Shown piece after piece: positions 46,067-58,200 of a stretch of DNA of 64,000 bases. A program made the translations under genes and the position numbers. The stretch's first letter is position 1. The number at the start of each line of letters is the position of its first letter. The notes beneath the pieces are model-generated. The model searched no databases. It worked only from the letters and a program-made list of their open reading frames with translations, and was not told the DNA's origin. The DNA comes from Tricharina praecox (Eukaryota): positions 186,001-250,000 of the forward strand of contig NW_026250430.1 of NCBI RefSeq assembly GCF_024521635.1, given 5' to 3'.

Positions 46067-48723
46067 AGTCCAATCATTCGGCACAATCATACACCACGCA
46101 GTCGCAGTGGCGCCAGCTCGAGCCTCGCAGAGTTGCAGACTCGCAGACTCCCAGTGGCCAACAACCGGCCGCAACAGCGACCAGCACCAGCACCAGCACC
46201 AGCCCACCACGTGTGGATGACAGCGAGCGGCGGACTATTCCACAGGAGGCTGTCGATTTGCGGCAAGATCAACCATCCCAGGCTCGGTGCGGGTATCGCT
46301 ATGGGGAGGGAGAGATCGTCAGACAGGCACCATCGTAAGCCACTGGTGCGCTTGCGACCACGCTCCATTCCAACGTTGGCGAGATGTGATGGAGTGACAG
46401 AACGGTTTATCGCCCCCCCCCTCCTCCCCCCTCCTGCCGCTCGCGCAGTAAAAACAACAGTGATTTGATATCTCGCGCGGCGCTGACGTCGTGGGCGAAA
46501 GGTGAGCGGCTGTTAATGTGTACAACCTACTCTACTCTGGATAGGATTGTGGCTCGTCACGTCAGCAAATGCTTAATCCTGTGCCGCACGACATCCGGCA
46601 GGAGCAGCCGACCGGAGAGTTTATCCTGGTTGTGATACCTATTGCATCTTATCTATCCGATCTGCTTCCGCCTATATACAATGAGTGTATGGCCGCTGCC
46701 GCCCGACCGCCGACCGCCGGGCTACATCACGTTGGGTCAATTAGGATTATCAATGTCCGCGCTGGCTTCTCACGGACTCGGGGTGCACCTACTCTATGGA
46801 ATGCCATAAGAAAAAAATTGGGTTGTCCCGCGGGCAATTGCGAATCAGTTACAAACTGGAAGCACAAAGAATCGGATCGACATCTCGATGGCATCAACTC
46901 TAGAGTCTACTACCGTACTCTACACACGTCCAGCAGCTTCCTTCCCTCCTCTCCCCCTTCCAGCAAGGACGCATCCATCATCACCGCCACCACCGCTACC
47001 ACCACCACCGCCGCCAAGCAAACGCATCCGATCCGGCCTTTGCACGCGAGCCAGCCAGCGTGCTGCGTGCGCAGACGAGCACCATTTCGTTCTGGCTGGC
47101 AGCTGCTGCCCGTTCCGTTTGCACCGAGAAGCCGCTATCCGGCAGTTCCAGCTCGTGCTCTACCGTACATAACTCCTCGCACTACCGTACGAGCTGCTTG
47201 AGGGAGCTGCCTCGATCCTGCACGCCATCTCGCTGGGCACTGAGCCCTCGCTACCAACAACAACCACTTCCCGATCTCCGGCAGCCCGCATGCATGCAGA
47301 GAGGGACGGGGGGCAGAGAACCGGATACTGTCCGGTGCAAACAATTGCTCCCAGCTATGGTAGGTGGCCATCACTCCCACTCCCGCTCCCCTTCCTCCAC
47401 CCACCACCCACCCACCCAATTCCTACTACCTAACCACTACAACTCCACCTCCAACTCCAACTCCAACTCCAACTCCAACTCCAACTCCACTGCGTACGAC
47501 TGCAACTCCAACCCACGGATCCTCACCTTCTTCGCCTCACTGTGCGCCCAACAACAATAACAACACTCTCGGCGGAAAGAAAGACGAAAAAAAAGCAAAC
47601 CCCACCCGCTGCAAACGAACGCACACACACATCTGCTGGCCATCTCATCTCGTTCAATTTGCCATCGTCCCTCTGAGGAAAAGAAAAAGAAAAATCAGAG
47701 GAGAGAAGGAAAAAAAAAGATCACCCTCCTTCCCGAGGCTCGGAGCAGAAGGGAAAGGGGGAAGAAAAAACGGGAAGAAAAAAAAACAACAACGATGCCA
47801 TTGCAAACAGAAATTGAAAGGGTAGAAATACATATCCCCACTGCCGCCGCCAGCACACAGGACAGCACAGTAAAGCAAAGCACAGGACGGCTCTTTCTTA
47901 TACTGTCTTCCCTTCTCATCCTTCCACCACCGAGAAACGATACCCACAAATGCACGGGAGCAAGAAAACCTCCGAACCAGATCGATCGAGGCTGAAAAGA
48001 GCCAGACAAATTTACCCCCGTCGACCAGCCACTGAGCAACCAATAAAACCGGGTATCATCACCCAAAACGGCCAAGAAGGTGCAAGACTAAGGAAAAAAT
48101 AGGGCAATTGAAAATTACAGACAGAACAGAAATCAATGACGGCTTCCGAAGAAAAAAAACACACACACTCATACATCGCGCCGCCGCGGCCGGTATATCG
48201 TCACCCAGAACGAAACGGAAAAGAGAAACAGAAAGAACACCCACAGCCTTTATAAAATAAAAAAAATAAAAAAACTTCCATAGGAAAAAAGATTTCTCAA
48301 ACGCCGCTCCAATCCCATCCAACCCAATCCAATCCCCCCTCCCCGCGCGCGCAAAACCCAAACAGATTAAGGTATGCCAGTTGCAAAAAAAAGAATTCAC
48401 GATCCGGAAACATATAACCACAAAACAAAACAAGAGAAAGAGAACATATAAGAGACATGAAAGTGTCGTCAGCCTCTCAGCCTTCAAAAAAATCTTTGCA
48501 TGTTCCCGGGGAACGACATCACGACACGGAGGATAACCAGCTTCGTCCGATTTCGGCTTTCCAACCAAGAAAATAAATATTCCGCCGCCGCCGTCATCGC
48601 TTTTCGGAAGGTCCAGGGAACAAGGAGGGGTGGGGACCATGAAACCAGAAATGTGATATCGCCCAGATATCCGTGGCGATAATCCGGCGGGTATTGCAGC
48701 AGCAGCGCACGGTACACACATCA

Positions 48724-50219
48724 CTACTGTGGTGATGGCTCATGTTCGGTATCTGAGATCTCCCGGGCCTTCTCCCTGCATGCTGCCGGCGAGAACCCGC
48801 TTCCAACTTTGGCAGCAATCAATCGCCACCGATCTTGCTCGTACTCCGAGATTGCGGTACGCAATCGCTGTACCTGCTTAGGGCCCCGGATGTCAGCAAA
48901 AGAACATGAAGGCAACAATCAACCCATCGCACCCGATGATCTCAATGGTATGCTTGATCCCGACAGTGGGAAAATTTCCCGAGCCCAGCAGGGGGTCGCA
49001 ACCCGGGAGATGGCGCTCATGCGGTTGGAGAAAGTGAAGAAACAGAGCCAGGTTGCTGGGAAGTAATAACGGGACTTCACTCCAACTGCCGCACCGGGGC
49101 TACACAAGATGTACCATGGGGTGCCCGCGCCGGTTCGACCAACCAACCCAGTCCAACCCGCACGACCAACATTTGGAAGTCCAACCGGGGCAACGCAAAG
49201 CGTGAGAAGTTGGGGAAAGTCGGGGAGTTGGGGAGTTGGGGGGAGTTGGGAATATTCCTTACCGTTTCATCTGTCCACTGTGTCGTCTTGGCCTTCAGTT
49301 TTGTGCAGTACCGGACCTGCAGAGTTCCAGACGAACGCCCCGGAAAGAACTCTGCGATTTGCTTCCACGTCAATGATTTGTTCTCCTTCAGATCGACTAG
49401 CAGCGTGTCATCCTCGGGTGTGAACTTCAGTTTGGGACCTCTAGGTCTTGGAGCGGGTGACGGCATCGTCATCGGGTGGGATGATGCGCTTGCCACAGCT
49501 GTGGAAGGGCCTGGCATGCCAATTGCCGGGCTTACACCTCCACCTCCACCTCCAATACTACCACCACCACCACCACCTCCACCTCCACCACCCAATCCGG
49601 CACTTGTTCTTGCCATTTTCGCTGGCGGTGGATGGTCGGATAGGTGGTGGTGATGGTGATGAAGCTGTTGATGTTGCTGAGTGAGCTGGGCATGCTGCTG
49701 ATGTTGATGCTGCTGATGCGCCCGGCGGTGGTGCGTGTGTTGCGGCGGCGGTGGGAGATGATGGTAGTGCGGTTCGACGTCTTGATCCTCCTCGTCTTCT
49801 CGGAGTCCAAGGTCCAGCTCTAACTCTTCGTGGGTGCGAGCTCGTGGCTTCGACGACGTGTGCCCGTACAGGTGCGTGCTTCCTCCGCCCAGATGCGATG
49901 GCGGCCGTTGGTGAGCCATTTGTTGGACGTGGAGTAGCGGTTCGTTCAAGTCGTCGAGCGAATCGAGCCCGCGGGGTTCTTGCTGTTGGGCCTGGGGGTA
50001 GTTGGCGGTGGTGGTGTACTCCTGTTGCTGTTGCTGTTGTTGCTGTTGCTGCTGCTGCTGCTGCTGGGAGTAGTGCCGTTGCTGCTGCTGCTGTTGATAA
50101 CTGACGCTGCCGCCGTGGGGTTCAGTTGTGGCCTGCTGGCTCTGGTGAAGGTGATGCTGCTGTGGCGGCCGGCGGGAGTAACTCGGTCCAGTGAGCTGGT
50201 GGTAATACGGAGCAGCCAC
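48724..50219 (-). CDS. Two-repeat Myb/SANT DNA-binding transcription factor with Q/H-rich N-terminus (368 aa from GTG 50219; 268 aa from first ATG 49919)
   Basis: Exons 50219(or 49919)-49263 and 48873-48724 (389-nt intron gtaagg...gctgac...agcag). KFTPEDDTLLVDLKENKSLTWKQIAEFFPGRSSGTLQVRYCTKL + QWTDET/VQRLRTAISEYEQDRWRLIAAKVGSGFSPAACREKA. Start codon uncertain. Confidence 0.9.
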
Positions 50220-53200
50220 TGTGGTGGATGATGTCGTGGGGGAGAACCGAGTCTCCAGCCACTTGTGGATTACGGTGGTAATGGTAGTGGCGGCGGCTGG
50301 GTGGTGGGCGGTGGTGGGCGGTCGAGGAATATCGTCGAGTGTTGTTTGGCTTTGCTATTCCTTTCGCGGCCGAATGGGTACGTATAGCGCGGCGGCGGGA
50401 GAGGTAGGTGTATATGATGAAGGTCTTAACTCTTGTCGCAAGGGGATCTGACGCGCAGCGTGCACTTTGAACGGCGCAGGGAGGCCGGTGGGTTATGGCC
50501 GACGACTCAGGGTGGGCGACGTGGCTTGGGGGTGAGGGAGGGATGGAGGAAGATCCAGGCGCTGGTGAAATTTTCGAGAGGCAGGCACCGCTGACGAAAT
50601 AACGTTTTTTACAAGGGAGGCGGTATAAGACAGGCCCTATAGCTCTGGCAGGAAGGAAACGAGGGAAGGGATATGTGGGGAGGGGGGGTGGGAAGGGTTA
50701 TGGGAAGGGGGCGGAAGGGAAGGTGTGCTGATGGAGGGCAGTCAATCCCAAATAAAAAGAAAACCGGTCGTCTGCTGGGATGCGGGGGGGGAGGTTGATG
50801 CTCCAGTTATCGATCTCACACTTGTGATATTCTCGCTTTAATCATGCCCGTCGGGGTCGTGGTCGTCGGTGTCGACAATCCGGGGGTGGGGGATTTCTTT
50901 AAATCCCCCAACTTAGCCGTTTAATCTGGCGCTCCCCCGCAGCCGCAGCTTTGTTTTTCGCTAAAGTGCAATGTTGTCAATCGCTCAGAGACGACGACGG
51001 GGGACGAGGGGACGATCCGGAACCGAAACGCGTTTGCTGACGACTGACGACTGACGACACTGGGGGGACGCGGATAATGCGAATAGTAGGTAGGTATGGC
51101 TTGACGATGGCTATGTATGATGTAGGTATGCTATGCTATGCTGACAGACACTGGGGTTCGGGTGGCGCTGGGACGCGGTGCTGCTGCTGCTGCTGCTGGC
51201 AGGTGGTGGTCTTGGGTGGTGGTGGTCTTGGGTGGTGGTGGTGGTGGTGGTGCTGCTGGTGGTGGTGGTGGTAGTGCTGGTGCTGGTAGGTGGGTGCTAG
51301 TTCTGGTGCTGGTGCTTGTGGGGTAGTGGTAGTGGCAGTGGCAGTGGTGGAAAAAGAAGAGGATGCTGCTGCTGCTGTCTGAGAGTCGATTGCATGACAA
51401 GCTGGTGGTGCATGGTTCAAAACAACAAAAAAACTAACTACGGCGATTTGAGAAAGACGAGACTCATTCGTTCGTTCGTGGGTTGCGACGACGTCTCGAG
51501 ACTCGAGAGAGAGAAGCTGACCAAGAATGAGGGATCGGGGATTGGAGGGGGAGGGGTGGGGGTGGATGGAGAGCCGGGAGGAGCAGGAGGAGGATCAGGA
51601 GCAGGATGATGAGCAGGAGCAGGAGAAGGAAGCGGCCGTTTTGCAGGAGATCGCCAGCGATGGATGGATGAGATAGAGCTACTACTATAGTAGGAAGAGC
51701 TAGGAACGGCGGCGCGTGAGTGATTGATCACGCTCCCGGGCTGGGCCGTGCGGCAATGATAGGCAGGCAGACAGACAGCGGCGACTATGCACAGATGGAG
51801 CGCACAGGTGGTGGTGGGAAAAGGGGGGGAGGGTCAAATACCTAGGTGGGTAAGGAAGCGGGTATCGGACCGAAACGCGAGACTGGCTGGCCCGTGGTAC
51901 AGGCCTTCTCGAAGCGGCCAACGAGGACGTGTGAGGATTTTGATTGTTGGGGCCGGATCGGAAGGGAAGGGATTGGGGTGGAGTGAGTGAGTGGGTACGG
52001 GCAGGCCAGGGCAGTGGCAGAGGAGAAGGAAGGATGTCTGATGTTGCGGCCAATCTGGAGCAGAGACCACTCGAGACGACAAGCTGGTCTCTGACTCTCT
52101 GCCGTGGGTAAGTGCCTGCTGTTCTCTTCAAATCCTCCCCTCGTCCTCCTCATCCTCCTATTCTTCCCGGACATACGACCAAAGAGAAGGTAGGGCCCCC
52201 GGCTTTCTCGGGAACATCCTGGGGAGGGAAATCATCGAAGAAGGAAAAACTCCTCGGGATTGGGTGAGAGACGTGGGTAGGTATTAGAAAAGCAGAACAA
52301 CGACAGCGCTGACACTTGCTACGTGAAGAGACAGACCACGTCCACGCACGAGTTGCACGTAAGAACGGCAGAAGGTATGTGAGGTAGGTACCAGGTAGGT
52401 ATAACAGGTGTATGTAGTAGGACTGACTGACTGGTCCAGGACAGGACGGGAGGAGCAGTGTGTGCACGATTACGGCAGCAGCAGCAGCACGGCTATAGTT
52501 AGGCTGCACCTTCTATGGATTCCTTCCCTTCCCTTCCCTACCTAGAACGGTAAAAAAAGCCATACGTGAGTAGTAGTTAACTGAACCAGCTTGTGACGGC
52601 AGAAAACCCGAAGAAAGAAAGAAAAGAAAGAAGAACGACACAGATGACGGATGACGGATGACAGAGAAGTGAACTGGCAAAAAAGACAATCCGTGCAATG
52701 AACCGATTGGATAGCTGGCGTCAAGGAGCAAGCACACTTTGCTCTCGAGTCCTTTCCTTGTCGGCCTGGGTTCGCGCGTCTGTTAGTTGGTTGGTTGGTA
52801 GATACATACGTATCAATAGGCTTCGTGCATCGTCCTCCGGAGAAGTGCCCATCCCCATCCCCATCCCCCATCACCATCCCCCATCACCATCACCATCACC
52901 GATACTGGTGGTGATGGTGATGCTAGTGATGGTGATGCTAGTGATGGTGATGCTAGTGGTGGTGATGGTGATGGTGTATCTGTGTATCTGGAAACCGGCA
53001 CAGGACAGACGGAGACGGGCGGGACTAGTTACTACGTGCTTGCTTGCATGAAGGGGCAGTGGATTCCATTTCGAAGAGACTCGAGAGTGTGAAGGTTAGA
53101 CACCTCAATAGTTGATGAGAGGATCCGCGACTAACCACATATCAGGGATGCTGCTACCCAACTCCAAGCTGGTCCGCGAAGAAAAAAAATTAGTTAAGGG

Positions 53201-55167
53201 AGAGGCTTGCCTGCCCGCCTGCTTGCTTTGAGACGCAAGGCGCTTGCTTTGCTTGACACAGTTTTTGACAGCTCGCTCGCTGCTCTGCACTGCAACTGCA
53301 CTGCAGCCACCACTGCACTGGTTAACTAAACTAACTATAGAGTAGTAGAGTAGCTAGGCCTCAGTTGGGATCGACATCCACATTTTTTTCTTTCTTAGCG
53401 GCGTTACATACCATTGGCCGGCGGAGGCTGCGGTGGCTGCGGAGGCTGCGCGGAGCACACCCATCTGCTGATCAAGTGACCGCTCGGGCAGCTGAAGCGA
53501 AGCAGGCCAACTGCAGTTGTGTGGAAAAAGCAAGGTTTGAGCGAGGAGGGTGTGCTGTGCGGCGCGGCGGCATTGGTGGGTTGGGGTTAGTGGAAGTGGT
53601 GGTGGTGGTGGTGGTGGTGGAGGAGGATGAGAAGGTGGTGGAAGTGCTGGCCATGACCACCCTGGTGGGGACGTCGTGGGGAGGTCCGATGGTGATAGTG
53701 ATGGTGGTGATGATGCTGATGCTGATGGTGATGGTGATGGTGGTGATGATGAGGGTGAGGGTGAGGAGTCCAAAGTCGCTCGCCCGCAGTACCAACGACC
53801 AATCTAAGCTGCTTTGGGGCTAGTCGGTGAGGCCAAATCGTACCTAAAGTAGAGTACCTGCCTGCGAGTATCTACATACAAAGCATTTACTATTAATGTG
53901 GGTAGTCGTCCATGTAGCGGTAGTTATCTAGAGTACATAGAGATGAGTACATATCAATCCATCTCCTCTGGCTTCCTCCTCGGAGTCGGTATGATACTCT
54001 ACTCCATGGTGAAGACATCGCGCATGGGCTAACTAACCGACTAGCCGTGGAGGGGAGCGGACACGGACAGAGAGGACTCGCTGGACTGGACTTGCACGGA
54101 GATGGCCACGATGGCCACGATGGCCGGCCGCCAGCGAAGGCCACGGAAATGAGAAGGGTGTGGCGAGTACCATACATACGACGACGACAACGAAGGCCTG
54201 CTCTGACTGCCCCACCCGCCACACACCACACCACCTCCACCATCCACCTCCACCAACGACCACCTACTGCACTCCGCATCCCTGAGGCATCTCGCCTGCG
54301 TAATAACAAGGCGCAGCAAAAGCACGGGGGTGGGGGGAGGTGGTTTTTTTCTCTTCATCTGCTCTACCAAATCCGTCTACAAATGATGATACATATCTCG
54401 TCTTCGGCGCTAGTGGGCGTTGACCCTAACTACCCTAACCACCCTAGACTCTAGAGATCCCCACCCGGGCCACCCGTTAACTAGCATAGTGAGCTAGCTA
54501 GCCTAGCTAGCATAGTTAGTTAGCTGGAGGATCGCCGTTCGCTGATGGTGCATAACGGAGCCAGCGGACTGCATATCGCCAGGGCAGGAGGGGCAGGAAC
54601 GACCAGAAGGAGGAACTGCTTCTCGTTTTGGGCCGTCGCCTTCGTTTCAAACCTCCACGCACTTTCCCGCATGCGTTTATGGTCCGCCTGCGGGTTCTCT
54701 GTGTTTTTTTCCTTTGCTTTCTTTCTTTCTGGCGTTCTCCCGCCCCTCGCCCTCGCTCGCACTTGCCCCTCGCGCCTCCACCCCCCCCTCTCTCTCCCCT
54801 CCCCTTTCCTCCTCTCCCCTCTCCTCCTCTCGGCGGGCTGCCGTGCTGGCTGGCTAGCAACGCTTAGTGTAGGTAGGGCACGTATGTATCACGCACTCTC
54901 GCCGAACTCGGCGCCCCTCGCAGTACTCTGGTGAGTTGTTGTTGTTGTTGTTATGTGTTTGCCCTGTCCCGGTGCAGTCGGCCGCAACCACCTTTTCAGC
55001 GACGAGTTGGGATGAACTGTGGAGAAACATGTGGAGTGGATATCGCGTATCTAGCCGACGAATGAGAAATTCGCTGGGAAGGGCGTACATAGGCGAGTAA
55101 GCCACCACAACCACCACCACCACCTCAACCACCAAACAGGCTAGTCCGCTTTCGGCTCCGCTCTCGG

Positions 55168-55232
55168 TACTTGGAGCACTTGGAGCACTTGGAGCAGCTC
55201 GGAACACTTGGGACAACTTGGAACACTTGGAA
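55168..55232. repeat. Degenerate 9-bp tandem repeat
   Basis: acttggagc / acttggaac units, about 7 copies. Confidence 0.75.
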
Positions 55233-58200
55233 ACCTCGACTCCTGGTGCAAGCACCTCCTCGCGTTCGCCAGAGCTGTGGAGAGAAAGTCTCAAACATAC
55301 CCTCGCCCGCTGTCTGTCGGTTACTACATAACTACTACTAGTTAATGCGTTTCGGAAACATGGCCTGCGCGGAATCCGGGCGGTGGATAAGTAAATAAAC
55401 CAGCCACTGCACTATTTATCTAACAAACTACTGGATATGTGCTCCGCAAGCTCGGACAAACACTGGCTTCAAACTCGAGAGAAAGAAAGAAAGGAACATG
55501 CCGTGTCTACATGTCTGTGTATGTTTCATCGTGATGGACTCTACATGCTCTGTAATTGCAGCATCAAATTCACGGTTTCACCTTATCCTCCTCCTCCTCC
55601 TCCTGCTCTTGTCCGTTCGGTGTCGTCGGCGTCGTCGACTTGTCGGGCTCGTTCCCTAAATCTCCGCCAAGCTCGTATATTTGTCGTCAAATCACCCTCC
55701 GTCAAAGTGCCCGAGCCCCTGTACCCGGTAGGTCCGGAGAGTTGGAAACGTCGACTTCAATTGAGTCTGGACGTCTCTCTCTCAGAGTGTCAGAGTCTCA
55801 GATTCTCAGTATGTGTGTTGCACACTGCTACGGCTGCGTGCCCTCTCTCTCTATGTGAAACCGTCACGTACCTGGGTATTATACTTTCCAGCGGTTTGGT
55901 GACTGCCGCGGATGCTCTGAACCTGCGTGGGGCTTGAGGATGTATGATATGTATGCAGATATCTATGTGATGTAGAATGTGTACCTGCAGAGGCGGTCGC
56001 CGGTGCGGCCCAGCTACATACTACGGTAGATGTGTACCATACTCTACCTAGTGTAGAGTACTAGTTAGTCCCCCCCCCCTCCTCCGCCCCCACCCCCGCT
56101 GTTACTCTAGTTACCACTGGTTCCTTCATCTGATCTCCGACAGGGCCCTCAGCTCAGCTCAGCTCAGCTCCGCTCCGGCTTGGTTTGGTTTTGGTTTGTG
56201 TACTCTACTCTACTCCACATATGTGTCCTGTAGGCAGTTTCGGATTTGCGCACGGAGCATACACTCAGCAGCAGCAACAGTACCGGTATCATCCGCCGAG
56301 CGGCCTGGCAGGTAGACTGGCTGGCTGGTAGCTCCATCGCCAAATCTTTGTGTACTCCACATAGCGAGCAAGCACCACAGGCCGGCAAGAACCGCAGGTC
56401 CGCAGCTTTTGAGTCTGGATTCGTCTTGCGGGTACATCCATAATTCCAAAAGCTTACCGGCGGCGGCGTTTCATCCTCGCTTTTGCCCCATTGCATTGAA
56501 CGTTCCTGGGTATGCTTATGCACTCCAGGTACGGTATGTTATAATGTCATGTACCTGCGTGTATATGTAAGTGCGCTTGAAGAATCTCGCGTTTCGGAGC
56601 TAGGTAGGTAAGTCGCACACACCGGCCGGAGTCGGTAGGTACAAGTCGGGTTCGAGAGTCGAGAGGTAGAGTGCATGGTTGACCCACCTGTGGTGAGGTG
56701 AAGTGAGGTGAGGTGAGGTGTGAGTACGTACCTACCTCCGTCACGGCGTCACGCATGATACGAGCGAAGCGCCGCCGGCCTCCGGCGTTCGGGGTCTGGA
56801 GTCTAGATAGGTACGTCTTTACCGAAAAGTGACAACGATACTACCTATACTATAACACATAAATACACTTATAAATTCGCGAACGAACCAGGAACTTGAC
56901 AGGAAATGCATGATGCATCGGCCAAGACTCAAGAGATGGGTTCCTTGCTCGCCGGCTAGGTATAGTACCTACATACATATGCAACGTTTTGGTTGAGGTT
57001 GAGAAAGGGTATGAGAAAGGGTGGTAGTTACTAGTAGTTACGTTAGTCTGCGCTTGCTGGCTCCTGGCACCGAAAGAGGCGGCAAAGCCCGGTAGATACG
57101 GCCGATCCTGGGCGGTAACTACATACAGATCGGGCGCGGAAGCTATCATGTATGGTACGTACGTAGCGGTGCGCTCTGTAACCTGTAACCAGTACTGTAA
57201 CCTCTCGCTCTGTTGCGCCATCGACTGATAGAGTAGTATGTGTCCGTTCCCATCCACCGAGATCGAGTCCGAGTACTCCGATAGGCGCCCAACCCTGCGT
57301 GGATTACCGTACTCACACTCCCCCCACACTCTGACTTCAAACTTTTCCGGTGTCATTCGCTCGTCTACCTACTTAGACTACCTACCTAGCTACATAACGA
57401 AGTACATACTACCTACCATAGTTGGCCATGCCGGCCGATGGCCGATGGCCGAAGGAGAGCTAAATATCTCTGGATGGGAAGGAATGGGATGAGAAGGGCC
57501 AGGATGAGGGACTTGACACGACGTGCGGCCTGGGCACTGGACAGTGGGTCTCGATCCTTATCGGTTTACCTAGGTTCTAGCTATGTAGTTATTTAGTGTA
57601 GGTAACTACATGGTAAGTTAGTGGCCGGCAACGGCAACTAATCGTGGGTAGCCGGCGTGTATGTATGCTATGATATCTACTACCGTATAGTGACCCTGGG
57701 GGGCCGAGCCTCCGTGATGTTGAACACGAATAAAGCAGGCGAACCAAAGGCATTCTCCGTTTGTTGCTTATGTAGGTACATACAGAGGTACATACCATCT
57801 CCATAGCACCCGATCTCCAACCTCCGACGAGGCCGGCGTGCTGGGATGATAGATGATGGATCAGGATAGGATGGCGGAGCTTCTTCTTCTTCTTCCTCCT
57901 CCGACGTACTGGGATCATGATTCTCATCCTCCTCCTCCTCCTCCTCCTGTTCCCATGGGACAGTAGCGAGTGTATTCGTGTACATATCATACACATCACA
58001 TATATCATACATACCGTATTACAACCTCACACGCCGACTCGTCGGTCCGTCGGTCGGACGTCTATTACTATACCGTACTCTACTACGTACTCTACTACCA
58101 GGTAGTAAACATCTGCTCTTCACGAACCACGTGTTTCAAGTTTGAGCCTTGCGTCTGAAACTCCATGCATGTACCCTGAACGCCCTGAGCACCCTGAGGG

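Follow-up and report, generated by a model that had tools for sequence, protein, structure and literature searches.

A probable GUG-initiated, protein-conserved N-terminal extension of a Myb/SANT protein in Pezizomycete fungi

Introduction

The closest described counterpart of the locus considered here is cpc-1 of Neurospora crassa, for which a conserved, near-cognate-initiated N-terminal extension has been documented together with its Pezizomycotina homologues (PMC5487733). A second fungal precedent concerns an enzyme: non-AUG initiation gives peroxisomal isoforms of fungal 6-phosphogluconate dehydrogenase (PMC7214817). Our subject is a gene on the minus strand of a 64,000-nucleotide (nt) stretch of Tricharina praecox DNA (contig NW_026250430.1; the whole stretch is called the window, and positions are counted from its first letter), whose predicted product, in this Pezizomycete fungus, is a small DNA-binding protein with two Myb/SANT repeats. 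From comparison of its 5' region with that of related loci, we propose that a GUG at position 50219, lying in frame and 100 codons 5' of the first ATG at 49919, probably starts an extended Myb protein, and that leaky scanning to the AUG would give a short form. Beyond the fungi, Ivanov and colleagues reportedly described in 2011, by comparative genomics, conserved non-AUG N-terminal extensions in human genes; as in those cases, coding-type conservation 5' of the annotated AUG ends here at a near-cognate codon in good context, albeit in a fungal gene that is not among that set.

Set against cpc-1, the locus shares a fungal transcription factor as its product, a leader of more than 600 nt, an in-frame, protein-conserved extension 5' of the main AUG, a conserved near-cognate codon set between A at -3 and G at +4 and differing in identity by lineage (here GTG versus CTG), and AUG-started upstream open reading frames (ORFs) further 5'. 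It departs from cpc-1 in protein family, Myb/SANT rather than bZIP; in having one conserved near-cognate codon where cpc-1 has several; in its putative starts, GUG or CUG instead of ACG, AUU or CUG; and in that the zone from the upstream ORF to the main AUG is wholly AUG-free, whereas uORF2 of cpc-1 overlaps the extension. Unlike that of cpc-1, the feature has so far been seen in Pezizomycetes only, and is known here from sequence and RNA contigs. With 6-phosphogluconate dehydrogenase the locus would share the addition, by fungal non-AUG initiation, of an N-terminal segment with a functional motif to part of the protein pool, but the motif there is an organelle-targeting signal on an enzyme, and here an acidic-hydrophobic motif on a DNA-binding regulator. 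A literature search found no paper on near-cognate initiation in Pezizomycetes, nor any under the locus tags of four orthologues, and among the matches listed for non-AUG initiation, Myb, N-terminal extension and fungi there was no paper on this gene.

Results

An open, AUG-free frame precedes the Myb coding sequence

Exon 1 of the Myb gene lies within a minus-strand stop-to-stop frame (50354-49077) that stays open for 145 codons 5' of ATG 49919 and holds no in-frame AUG over that distance. A preliminary description of this DNA, made from its letters, had pointed to the open frame from 50354 to the first ATG, to the lack of any sense-strand ATG across leader and extension, to the contrast between GTG 50219 (A at -3, G at +4) and an ATG with C at -3, and to the protein-like reading, with mixed CAG/CAA polyglutamine runs, of the segment before that ATG. 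All of these observations are confirmed on the sequence, the segment having 22 CAG and 11 CAA codons. By itself, openness counts for little, since each of the other two frames meets only one stop over that 300-nt stretch.

The next sense-strand ATG upstream, in any frame, is at 50845, and the gap of 926 nt between it and 49919 is the longest ATG-free gap on the minus strand of the window. Shuffling this zone produced a mean of 7.2 ATGs when mononucleotide composition was kept (0.15% of 2000 shuffles were ATG-free) and of 5.6 when dinucleotide composition was kept (0 of 500). Comparable zones are found in the 11 orthologous loci introduced below, which have 583-1192 nt without an ATG in any frame before the main ATG; in all eight sequences tested the zone is the strand's longest ATG-free gap, and 0-2 of 500 dinucleotide shuffles were ATG-free. 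The extension itself is devoid of ATGs in all three frames in 12 of 12 sequences (the window and the 11 loci), and leaky scanning to a downstream AUG requires an extension without out-of-frame ATGs.

A GTG or CTG codon occupies the site in three lineages

The proteins closest to the product are from Pezizomycetes: Sphaerosporella brunnea, 70% identical from the AUG onward, then Geopyxis, Morchella, Tuber and Tirmania. All five NCBI-named Pezizomycete orthologues start at MAH[QH]R, the homologue of ATG 49919, and the methionine of that codon is invariant in 15 of 15 aligned sequences. Several unnamed gene calls are longer, and their sequence, [V/L/M]-A-[A/E/D]-[P/Q]-Y ... EPRGL[DEN]SL[DE][DE]L[NS]EPLL.[VA]QQ-MAHQRPP, aligns with the window's upstream frame.

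When metagenome contigs were scanned with the alignment of these proteins, 11 orthologous loci with DNA were obtained (L001-L011), drawn from three deep lineages only: Pyronemataceae-like (L001 and L002, close relatives of the window, and L003-L005, a second species), Tuber-like (L006-L010, three closely related sequences) and Tirmania-like (L011). L001/L002, L003-L005 and L008-L010 are near-duplicates. The orthologue alignment that the preliminary description had proposed does reveal a conserved near-cognate codon at the exact position of 50219: GTG in ten loci (L001-L010) and CTG in L011 or, with the window included, GTG in 11 of 12 and CTG in one. Around it the core RCA-[G/C]TG-GCT-GC is invariant, with flanks reading ACA-GTG-GCT-GCT, GCA-GTG-GCT-GCC or ACA-CTG-GCT-GCT. 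The base at +4 is G in all twelve sequences and that at -3 a purine in all twelve (A in seven, G in the five Tuber-like loci); A at -3 and G at +4 are named as the most important context positions in Pezizomycotina (PMC5487733). An in-frame stop lies 14-57 codons 5' of the site in the relatives, and none of the other in-frame near-cognate codons 5' of the site is common to different lineages.

The frame might be entered in another way, by a different near-cognate codon, by reinitiation after an upstream ORF or by a frameshift from an overlapping one. Upstream of the site the window does offer further near-cognate codons in frame (CTG at -13, ACG at -6), as well as an out-of-frame GTGGCTG 43 nt 5' of the start GTG, and conserved upstream AUGs exist. 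Yet these remaining near-cognate codons are not conserved, L001 having none from -47 to 0 and L008 none upstream; the window and L001 differ at -8 by an indel of 1 nt, so that in one of the two species the sequence further upstream is out of frame; and, counted by hand, the upstream GTG precedes the start GTG by 43 nt in the window and in L003 and by 44 nt in L001, distances that are unequal modulo three. We regard entry by any of these routes as very unlikely.

Automatic gene calls in public protein databases print M for a GTG start, and a comparison of proteins alone can wrongly suggest an orthologue with ATG. Two such proteins, P0004 (MAAPY...) and P0006 (MADPY...), were considered as orthologues with ATG at the site and dropped: L007, almost identical to P0004, has GTG, and the printed M is therefore most likely the gene caller's rewriting of a GTG start, while P0006 consists of protein sequence only, without DNA. 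Homologue searches added little: a region-restricted search gave three matches, a profile search of 1.84 billion representatives two, and a further search for longer homologues six, none of them new. For the AUG-started N-terminus of Botrytis P0103, homology to the extension is not supported, BLASTP and hhalign aligning it only from LL..MAH onward.

Coding-type divergence begins at the start site

Mismatches and indels between the window and L001 were counted in a nucleotide-guided alignment, the upstream part of which comprised 700 nt. Downstream of the site, mismatches are distributed by codon phase as 7/11/24 and all six indels are multiples of three; upstream of it, the distribution is 18/18/20 and 7 of 40 indels are multiples of three. 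Within the extension, the comparisons with L003 give 13/5/24 for the window and 9/6/25 for L001. The nearest upstream indel, that of 1 nt at -8, turns ...SPTTSSTT in the upstream reading into ...PPQHHPTT; codons 2-5 (A-A-P-Y), on the other side of the site, show only synonymous differences between lineages (GCT/GCC, CCG/CCA, TAT/TAC).

In protein-guided codon alignments, the ratio of nonsynonymous to synonymous divergence (dN/dS) in the extension is 0.09-0.30 for pairs with estimable dS; this kind of alignment favours the coding reading in glutamine runs, and the nucleotide-guided alignment agrees with it. Between the window and the Tuber-like loci synonymous sites are saturated, with proportions of synonymous differences (pS) of 0.77-0.83, and the amino-acid motif is still kept. 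Third-position divergence is equal in extension and main coding sequence (24/97 and 49/205), and constraint on first and second positions is weaker in the extension (18/194 versus 14/410); for the main coding part of exon 1, window versus L001, mismatches by phase are 13/1/49 over 205 positions each. The extension varies in length from 43 to 105 codons, and its frame 0 is without stops in 12 of 12 sequences.

The synonymous-biased substitution that the preliminary description had expected over 50219-49920 is thus present as a third-position bias with in-frame indels, and a search for stops or frameshifts in the relatives' segment found none in 11 of 11 loci. Together these comparisons indicate that the extension evolves as protein and that the protein-like signature starts at the conserved GTG/CTG; the proposal of a GUG-initiated 100-codon Myb extension is supported by both the codon and the coding signature.

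Could the segment instead be an untranslated 5' leader, kept for an RNA- or DNA-level function, with the protein starting only at AUG 49919? Deep conservation at the nucleotide level does occur elsewhere in the leader, and five of five named orthologues are annotated from the AUG, although these annotations are not independent evidence because annotation pipelines require AUG. An untranslated leader would have to accommodate the third-position enrichment in three pairs, the in-frame length of every indel between the window and L001 and the persistence of the amino-acid motif over saturated synonymous sites, when the leader proper shows no such coding features; we consider it extremely unlikely.

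RNA contigs run unspliced across the site

Contigs assembled from two public runs of two studies, X1 and X2, were compared with the window. Both runs hold RNA, because their contigs skip exactly the Myb intron of 389 nt, at depths of 156 (X1) and 204 (X2); intron-retaining contigs have depths of 28.7 and 40.8. Across the start site, each run has a single contig that follows the window collinearly from 50103 to 51169 without a differing letter, gap or joint; the only breaks between contigs fall in the CAG repeat (50014-50102) and in a repeat at 51170-51380. The extension region is present unspliced in RNA, GTG stays GTG, and RNA includes the leader to a distance of at least 950 nt 5' of that codon. 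Two alternatives named in the preliminary description can be addressed in this way. A splice into the CAG before 50218 is not found in the dominant form, the contigs of X1 and X2 being collinear for ~950 nt upstream; and a transcription start site (TSS) only downstream of 50219 is contradicted, as RNA covers the GTG and a TSS downstream of it therefore cannot be the sole one.

The first of these alternatives can be put more generally: the extension would be translated from an AUG in an unrecognised upstream exon, and ACAG|TGGCTGC would be a splice acceptor and not a start context. The coding signature does start exactly at the site, as it would at an exon boundary, AG stands at the site in 11 of 12 sequences, and in the Tuber-like loci a 53-nt GTAAGG...TTCTTCGCAG ends there. 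The RNA contigs of both studies nonetheless pass collinearly for ~950 nt upstream without a joint, in the same runs that report the real intron, and L011 has ACA-CTG without AG, yet its protein conservation starts at the same place. No upstream GT donor is conserved among the window, L001 and L003, and in no locus is there an ATG within 454-959 nt 5' of the site; in the window, ATG 50845, the only one within 1.1 kb upstream, cannot by hand reading be joined in frame to 50218 via either following GT. Even in the Tuber-like loci the splice would restore ACA-GTG-GCT without an AUG: the upstream exon ends in ACACAG, and splicing would therefore rebuild the site with A at -3 and no AUG gained. An upstream AUG exon is, in our judgement, highly improbable. 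The candidate 53-nt intron lies at L006:962-1014, is also present in L007-L010, and ends exactly at the G of GTG.

The RNA also bears on the possibility that long and short proteins come mainly from two transcription starts, a distal one giving the GUG form and a proximal one, in or after the extension, giving the AUG form. The leader contig has a mean k-mer depth near half that of the coding contig (73 against 156 in X1; 60 against 129-204 in X2), as this would predict, but depth is given as a single value for each contig and is a poor guide. The absence of ATGs from all three frames of the extension in every sequence is expected under scanning and not required by two promoters, and the two-start model and leaky scanning are not mutually exclusive. 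As the main source of the two forms, paired transcription starts seem to us unlikely.

Conserved motifs, and not polyglutamine, characterise the extension

The 100-codon stretch encodes VAAPYYHQLTGPSY...EPRGLDSLDDLNEPLLHVQQ and is 33% glutamine. The preliminary description had envisaged a Q-rich domain of activation or condensate type as what distinguishes the isoforms, and this part of it is not supported: the Q tract is not conserved. Q runs occur in the window, L001 and L003; the Tuber-like loci have an H/Y-rich stretch instead, and in the Tirmania-like L011 the runs are absent. The conserved parts of the extension are AAPYY and EPRGLDSLDDLNEPLL. By general pattern rules the latter resembles an acidic activation motif and, equally, an export signal of the leucine-rich type, and this acidic-hydrophobic segment may act as one or the other. 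AlphaFold2 on a 6-sequence alignment was uninformative (mean predicted local distance difference test score 51.6, predicted template modelling score 0.22), giving only a low-confidence helix at the Q-rich tract.

Leader elements and upstream ORFs

The 50 nt before the GTG are the best-conserved bin of the leader, with an identity of 0.92 to L001 and 0.90 to L003. In a predicted RNA structure of window 50289-50144 (minus strand), the conserved element before the GTG pairs with codons ~7-17 and the start codon lies in a 9-bp hairpin; the minimum free energy is -35.6 kcal/mol, with a z of -2.08, and 1 of 24 pairs shows a compensatory change among three sequences; the signal is weak. Further 5', the window has in common with loci as distant as the Tuber-like ones the blocks GTTTCGGTTCCGGATCG, GATTGACAACATYGCACTTTAGCGAAAA and AACGTTATTT..GTCAGYGGTKCCTG (51029-51013, 50982-50955 and 50606-50582, minus strand), and the 14-mer GTCAGYGGTKCCTG has one sense-strand copy in the window and in 10 of 11 loci. 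L001 and L002, two samples of one species, differ by 6 nt in the length of a CAC (His-like) leader repeat 5' of the GTG, outside the coding signature.

At the 5' edge of the ATG-free zone there is a conserved ATG (window 51419-51408, minus strand), whose core reads TGAAYCATGCAC in four of five lineages and, in L011, AAAATTATGCAC. Counted from the start site it lies at -959 in L003, at about -550 in L006-L008 and at -454 in L011. In each lineage it starts an ORF, 26-46 codons long, of which neither peptide nor frame is conserved beyond ~13 codons; this ATG may belong to a regulatory upstream ORF or to a promoter element. A short upstream ORF at 50845-50816 (minus strand) encodes MIKARISQV followed by a stop; L001 has MIKARTS and a stop, and the ORF is absent there in the other lineages. 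An Rfam scan of 49800-53000 returned miRNA-like matches only, all below threshold and all on a microsatellite (52,840-52,990).

Perhaps the whole leader forms a conserved translational switch of the GCN4/cpc-1 type on the Myb regulator, maintained across Pezizomycetes. Its parts would be the conserved upstream AUG with its ORF of 26-46 codons, an AUG-free spacer of 0.45-1.2 kb with deeply conserved nucleotide blocks, and a GUG/CUG start inside a conserved structure of the preceding 45 nt and codons 7-17; stress- or development-dependent reinitiation, or start-codon stringency, would then set the ratio of long to short isoform. We offer this larger scheme tentatively and think it decidedly unlikely.

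Gene model and surrounding transcripts

The remainder of exon 1 matches Myb_DNA-bind_6 (PF13921) in Pfam at 47.4 bits against a cut-off of 22.9 (E 2.2e-12, residues 310-362 of P0001), which places it among the Myb/SANT domains, and its 3' end at 49263 is in phase 0. Exon 2, scanned alone, reaches PF00249 at E 1.9e-4, under the Pfam cut-off; it aligns with the C-termini of P0003, P0005 and P0008, and the full-length orthologue P0003 matches both Myb models in Pfam (61.8 bits for PF13921, 41 bits for PF00249). The features of the locus are collected in Table 1.

Table 1. Features of the Myb/SANT locus, in coordinates of the window
Feature	Position	Strand	Basis or remark
Start-proximal conserved element AGTGGCTGGAGACTCGGTTCTCC	50241..50263	-	holds second GTGGCTG, out of frame in window
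In-frame upstream stop TAG	50355..50357	-	45 codons 5' of GTG; frame and coordinates verified
ATG-free leader 5' of GTG	50220..50842	-	with extension, forms the 926-nt ATG-free zone
Proposed GUG initiation codon	50217..50219	-	ACC-ACA-GTG-GCT; A at -3, G at +4
N-terminal extension, 99 codons after GTG	49920..50216	-	AAPYY, EPRGLDSLDDLNEPLLHVQQ, lineage-variable Q-rich middle
First AUG (MAHQRPP...), proposed short-isoform start	49917..49919	-	CAACAA-ATG-G; C at -3, G at +4
Coding exon 1 remainder with first Myb/SANT repeat	49263..49916	-	Pfam and codon-phase mismatches
Intron, 389 nt, GTAAGG...CAG	48874..49262	-	RNA contigs skip exactly 389 nt; splice sites verified
Coding exon 2, second Myb repeat, 49 codons and TAG stop (48726-48724)	48724..48873	-	coordinates verified

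Upstream, the RNA contigs end at about 52,860-52,940, in the microsatellite. No convincing protein-coding frame was found in 51,200-56,500, and the ORF listing of 52000-56500 gave low-complexity frames only; the RNA upstream of the gene may derive from a very long leader or from a non-coding transcript missing from the annotation. At the other end, contigs pass the stop codon by 840-1260 nt (window 47461-48724) at depths of 207 and 146, which suggests a long 3' untranslated region or an adjoining transcript. Of two soil runs, X3 has one 186-nt metatranscriptome contig on 50801-50984, with 0 differing letters, and X4 has no contig matching the locus.

Discussion

How would one messenger give two proteins? 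On the reading that we prefer, scanning 43S complexes would pass along the long AUG-free leader and first meet GUG 50219, in the context preferred by fungi. A minority would initiate there with initiator Met-tRNA to give a protein of 368 residues, and the remaining ribosomes would scan on through 300 nt that are AUG-free in every frame and start at AUG 49919, to give one of 268 residues. The first 100 residues of the long form would hold AAPYY and EPRGLDSLDDLNEPLL, joined by a variable Q/H/Y-rich linker; the short form would be without either motif. The conserved codon and the coding signature argue for initiation at GUG, the AUG-free extension is consistent with the coexistence of long and short isoforms through leaky scanning, and start-codon stringency may control the two. 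We consider it likely, from these sequence comparisons, that GUG 50219 starts the extended protein and that leaky scanning yields the short one.

Several points weigh on the other side. GUG is usually a weak start, and the long form may be minor given that weakness. One valine codon kept across three lineages is, alone, not decisive. In 11 of the 12 sequences CAG|TG stands at the site, a form that also resembles a splice acceptor, and at the Tuber-like loci a plausible intron of 53 nt ends exactly at this point. The RNA contigs show neither TSS nor strand, and rare spliced forms could be lost from them; they reach ~52,900 and take in ATGs at 50845, 51395, 51413 and 51467, and some transcripts may therefore carry upstream ORFs before the GUG. 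Homology between the N-terminus of Botrytis P0103 and the extension is not established, the hhalign alignment running only from PLL..MAH onward.

Taken as probably GUG-initiated, the locus would add a well-supported fungal case of a non-AUG-started N-terminus, conserved, by the loci compared here, across three Pezizomycete lineages. The public annotations of Sphaerosporella, Geopyxis, Morchella, Tuber and Tirmania start at the internal AUG and would therefore lack 43-105 residues, among them the best-conserved motif outside the Myb domain. With its single near-cognate codon and its AUG-free leader, this gene would lend itself, as a clean natural system, to measurements of how stringent start-codon choice is in filamentous fungi.

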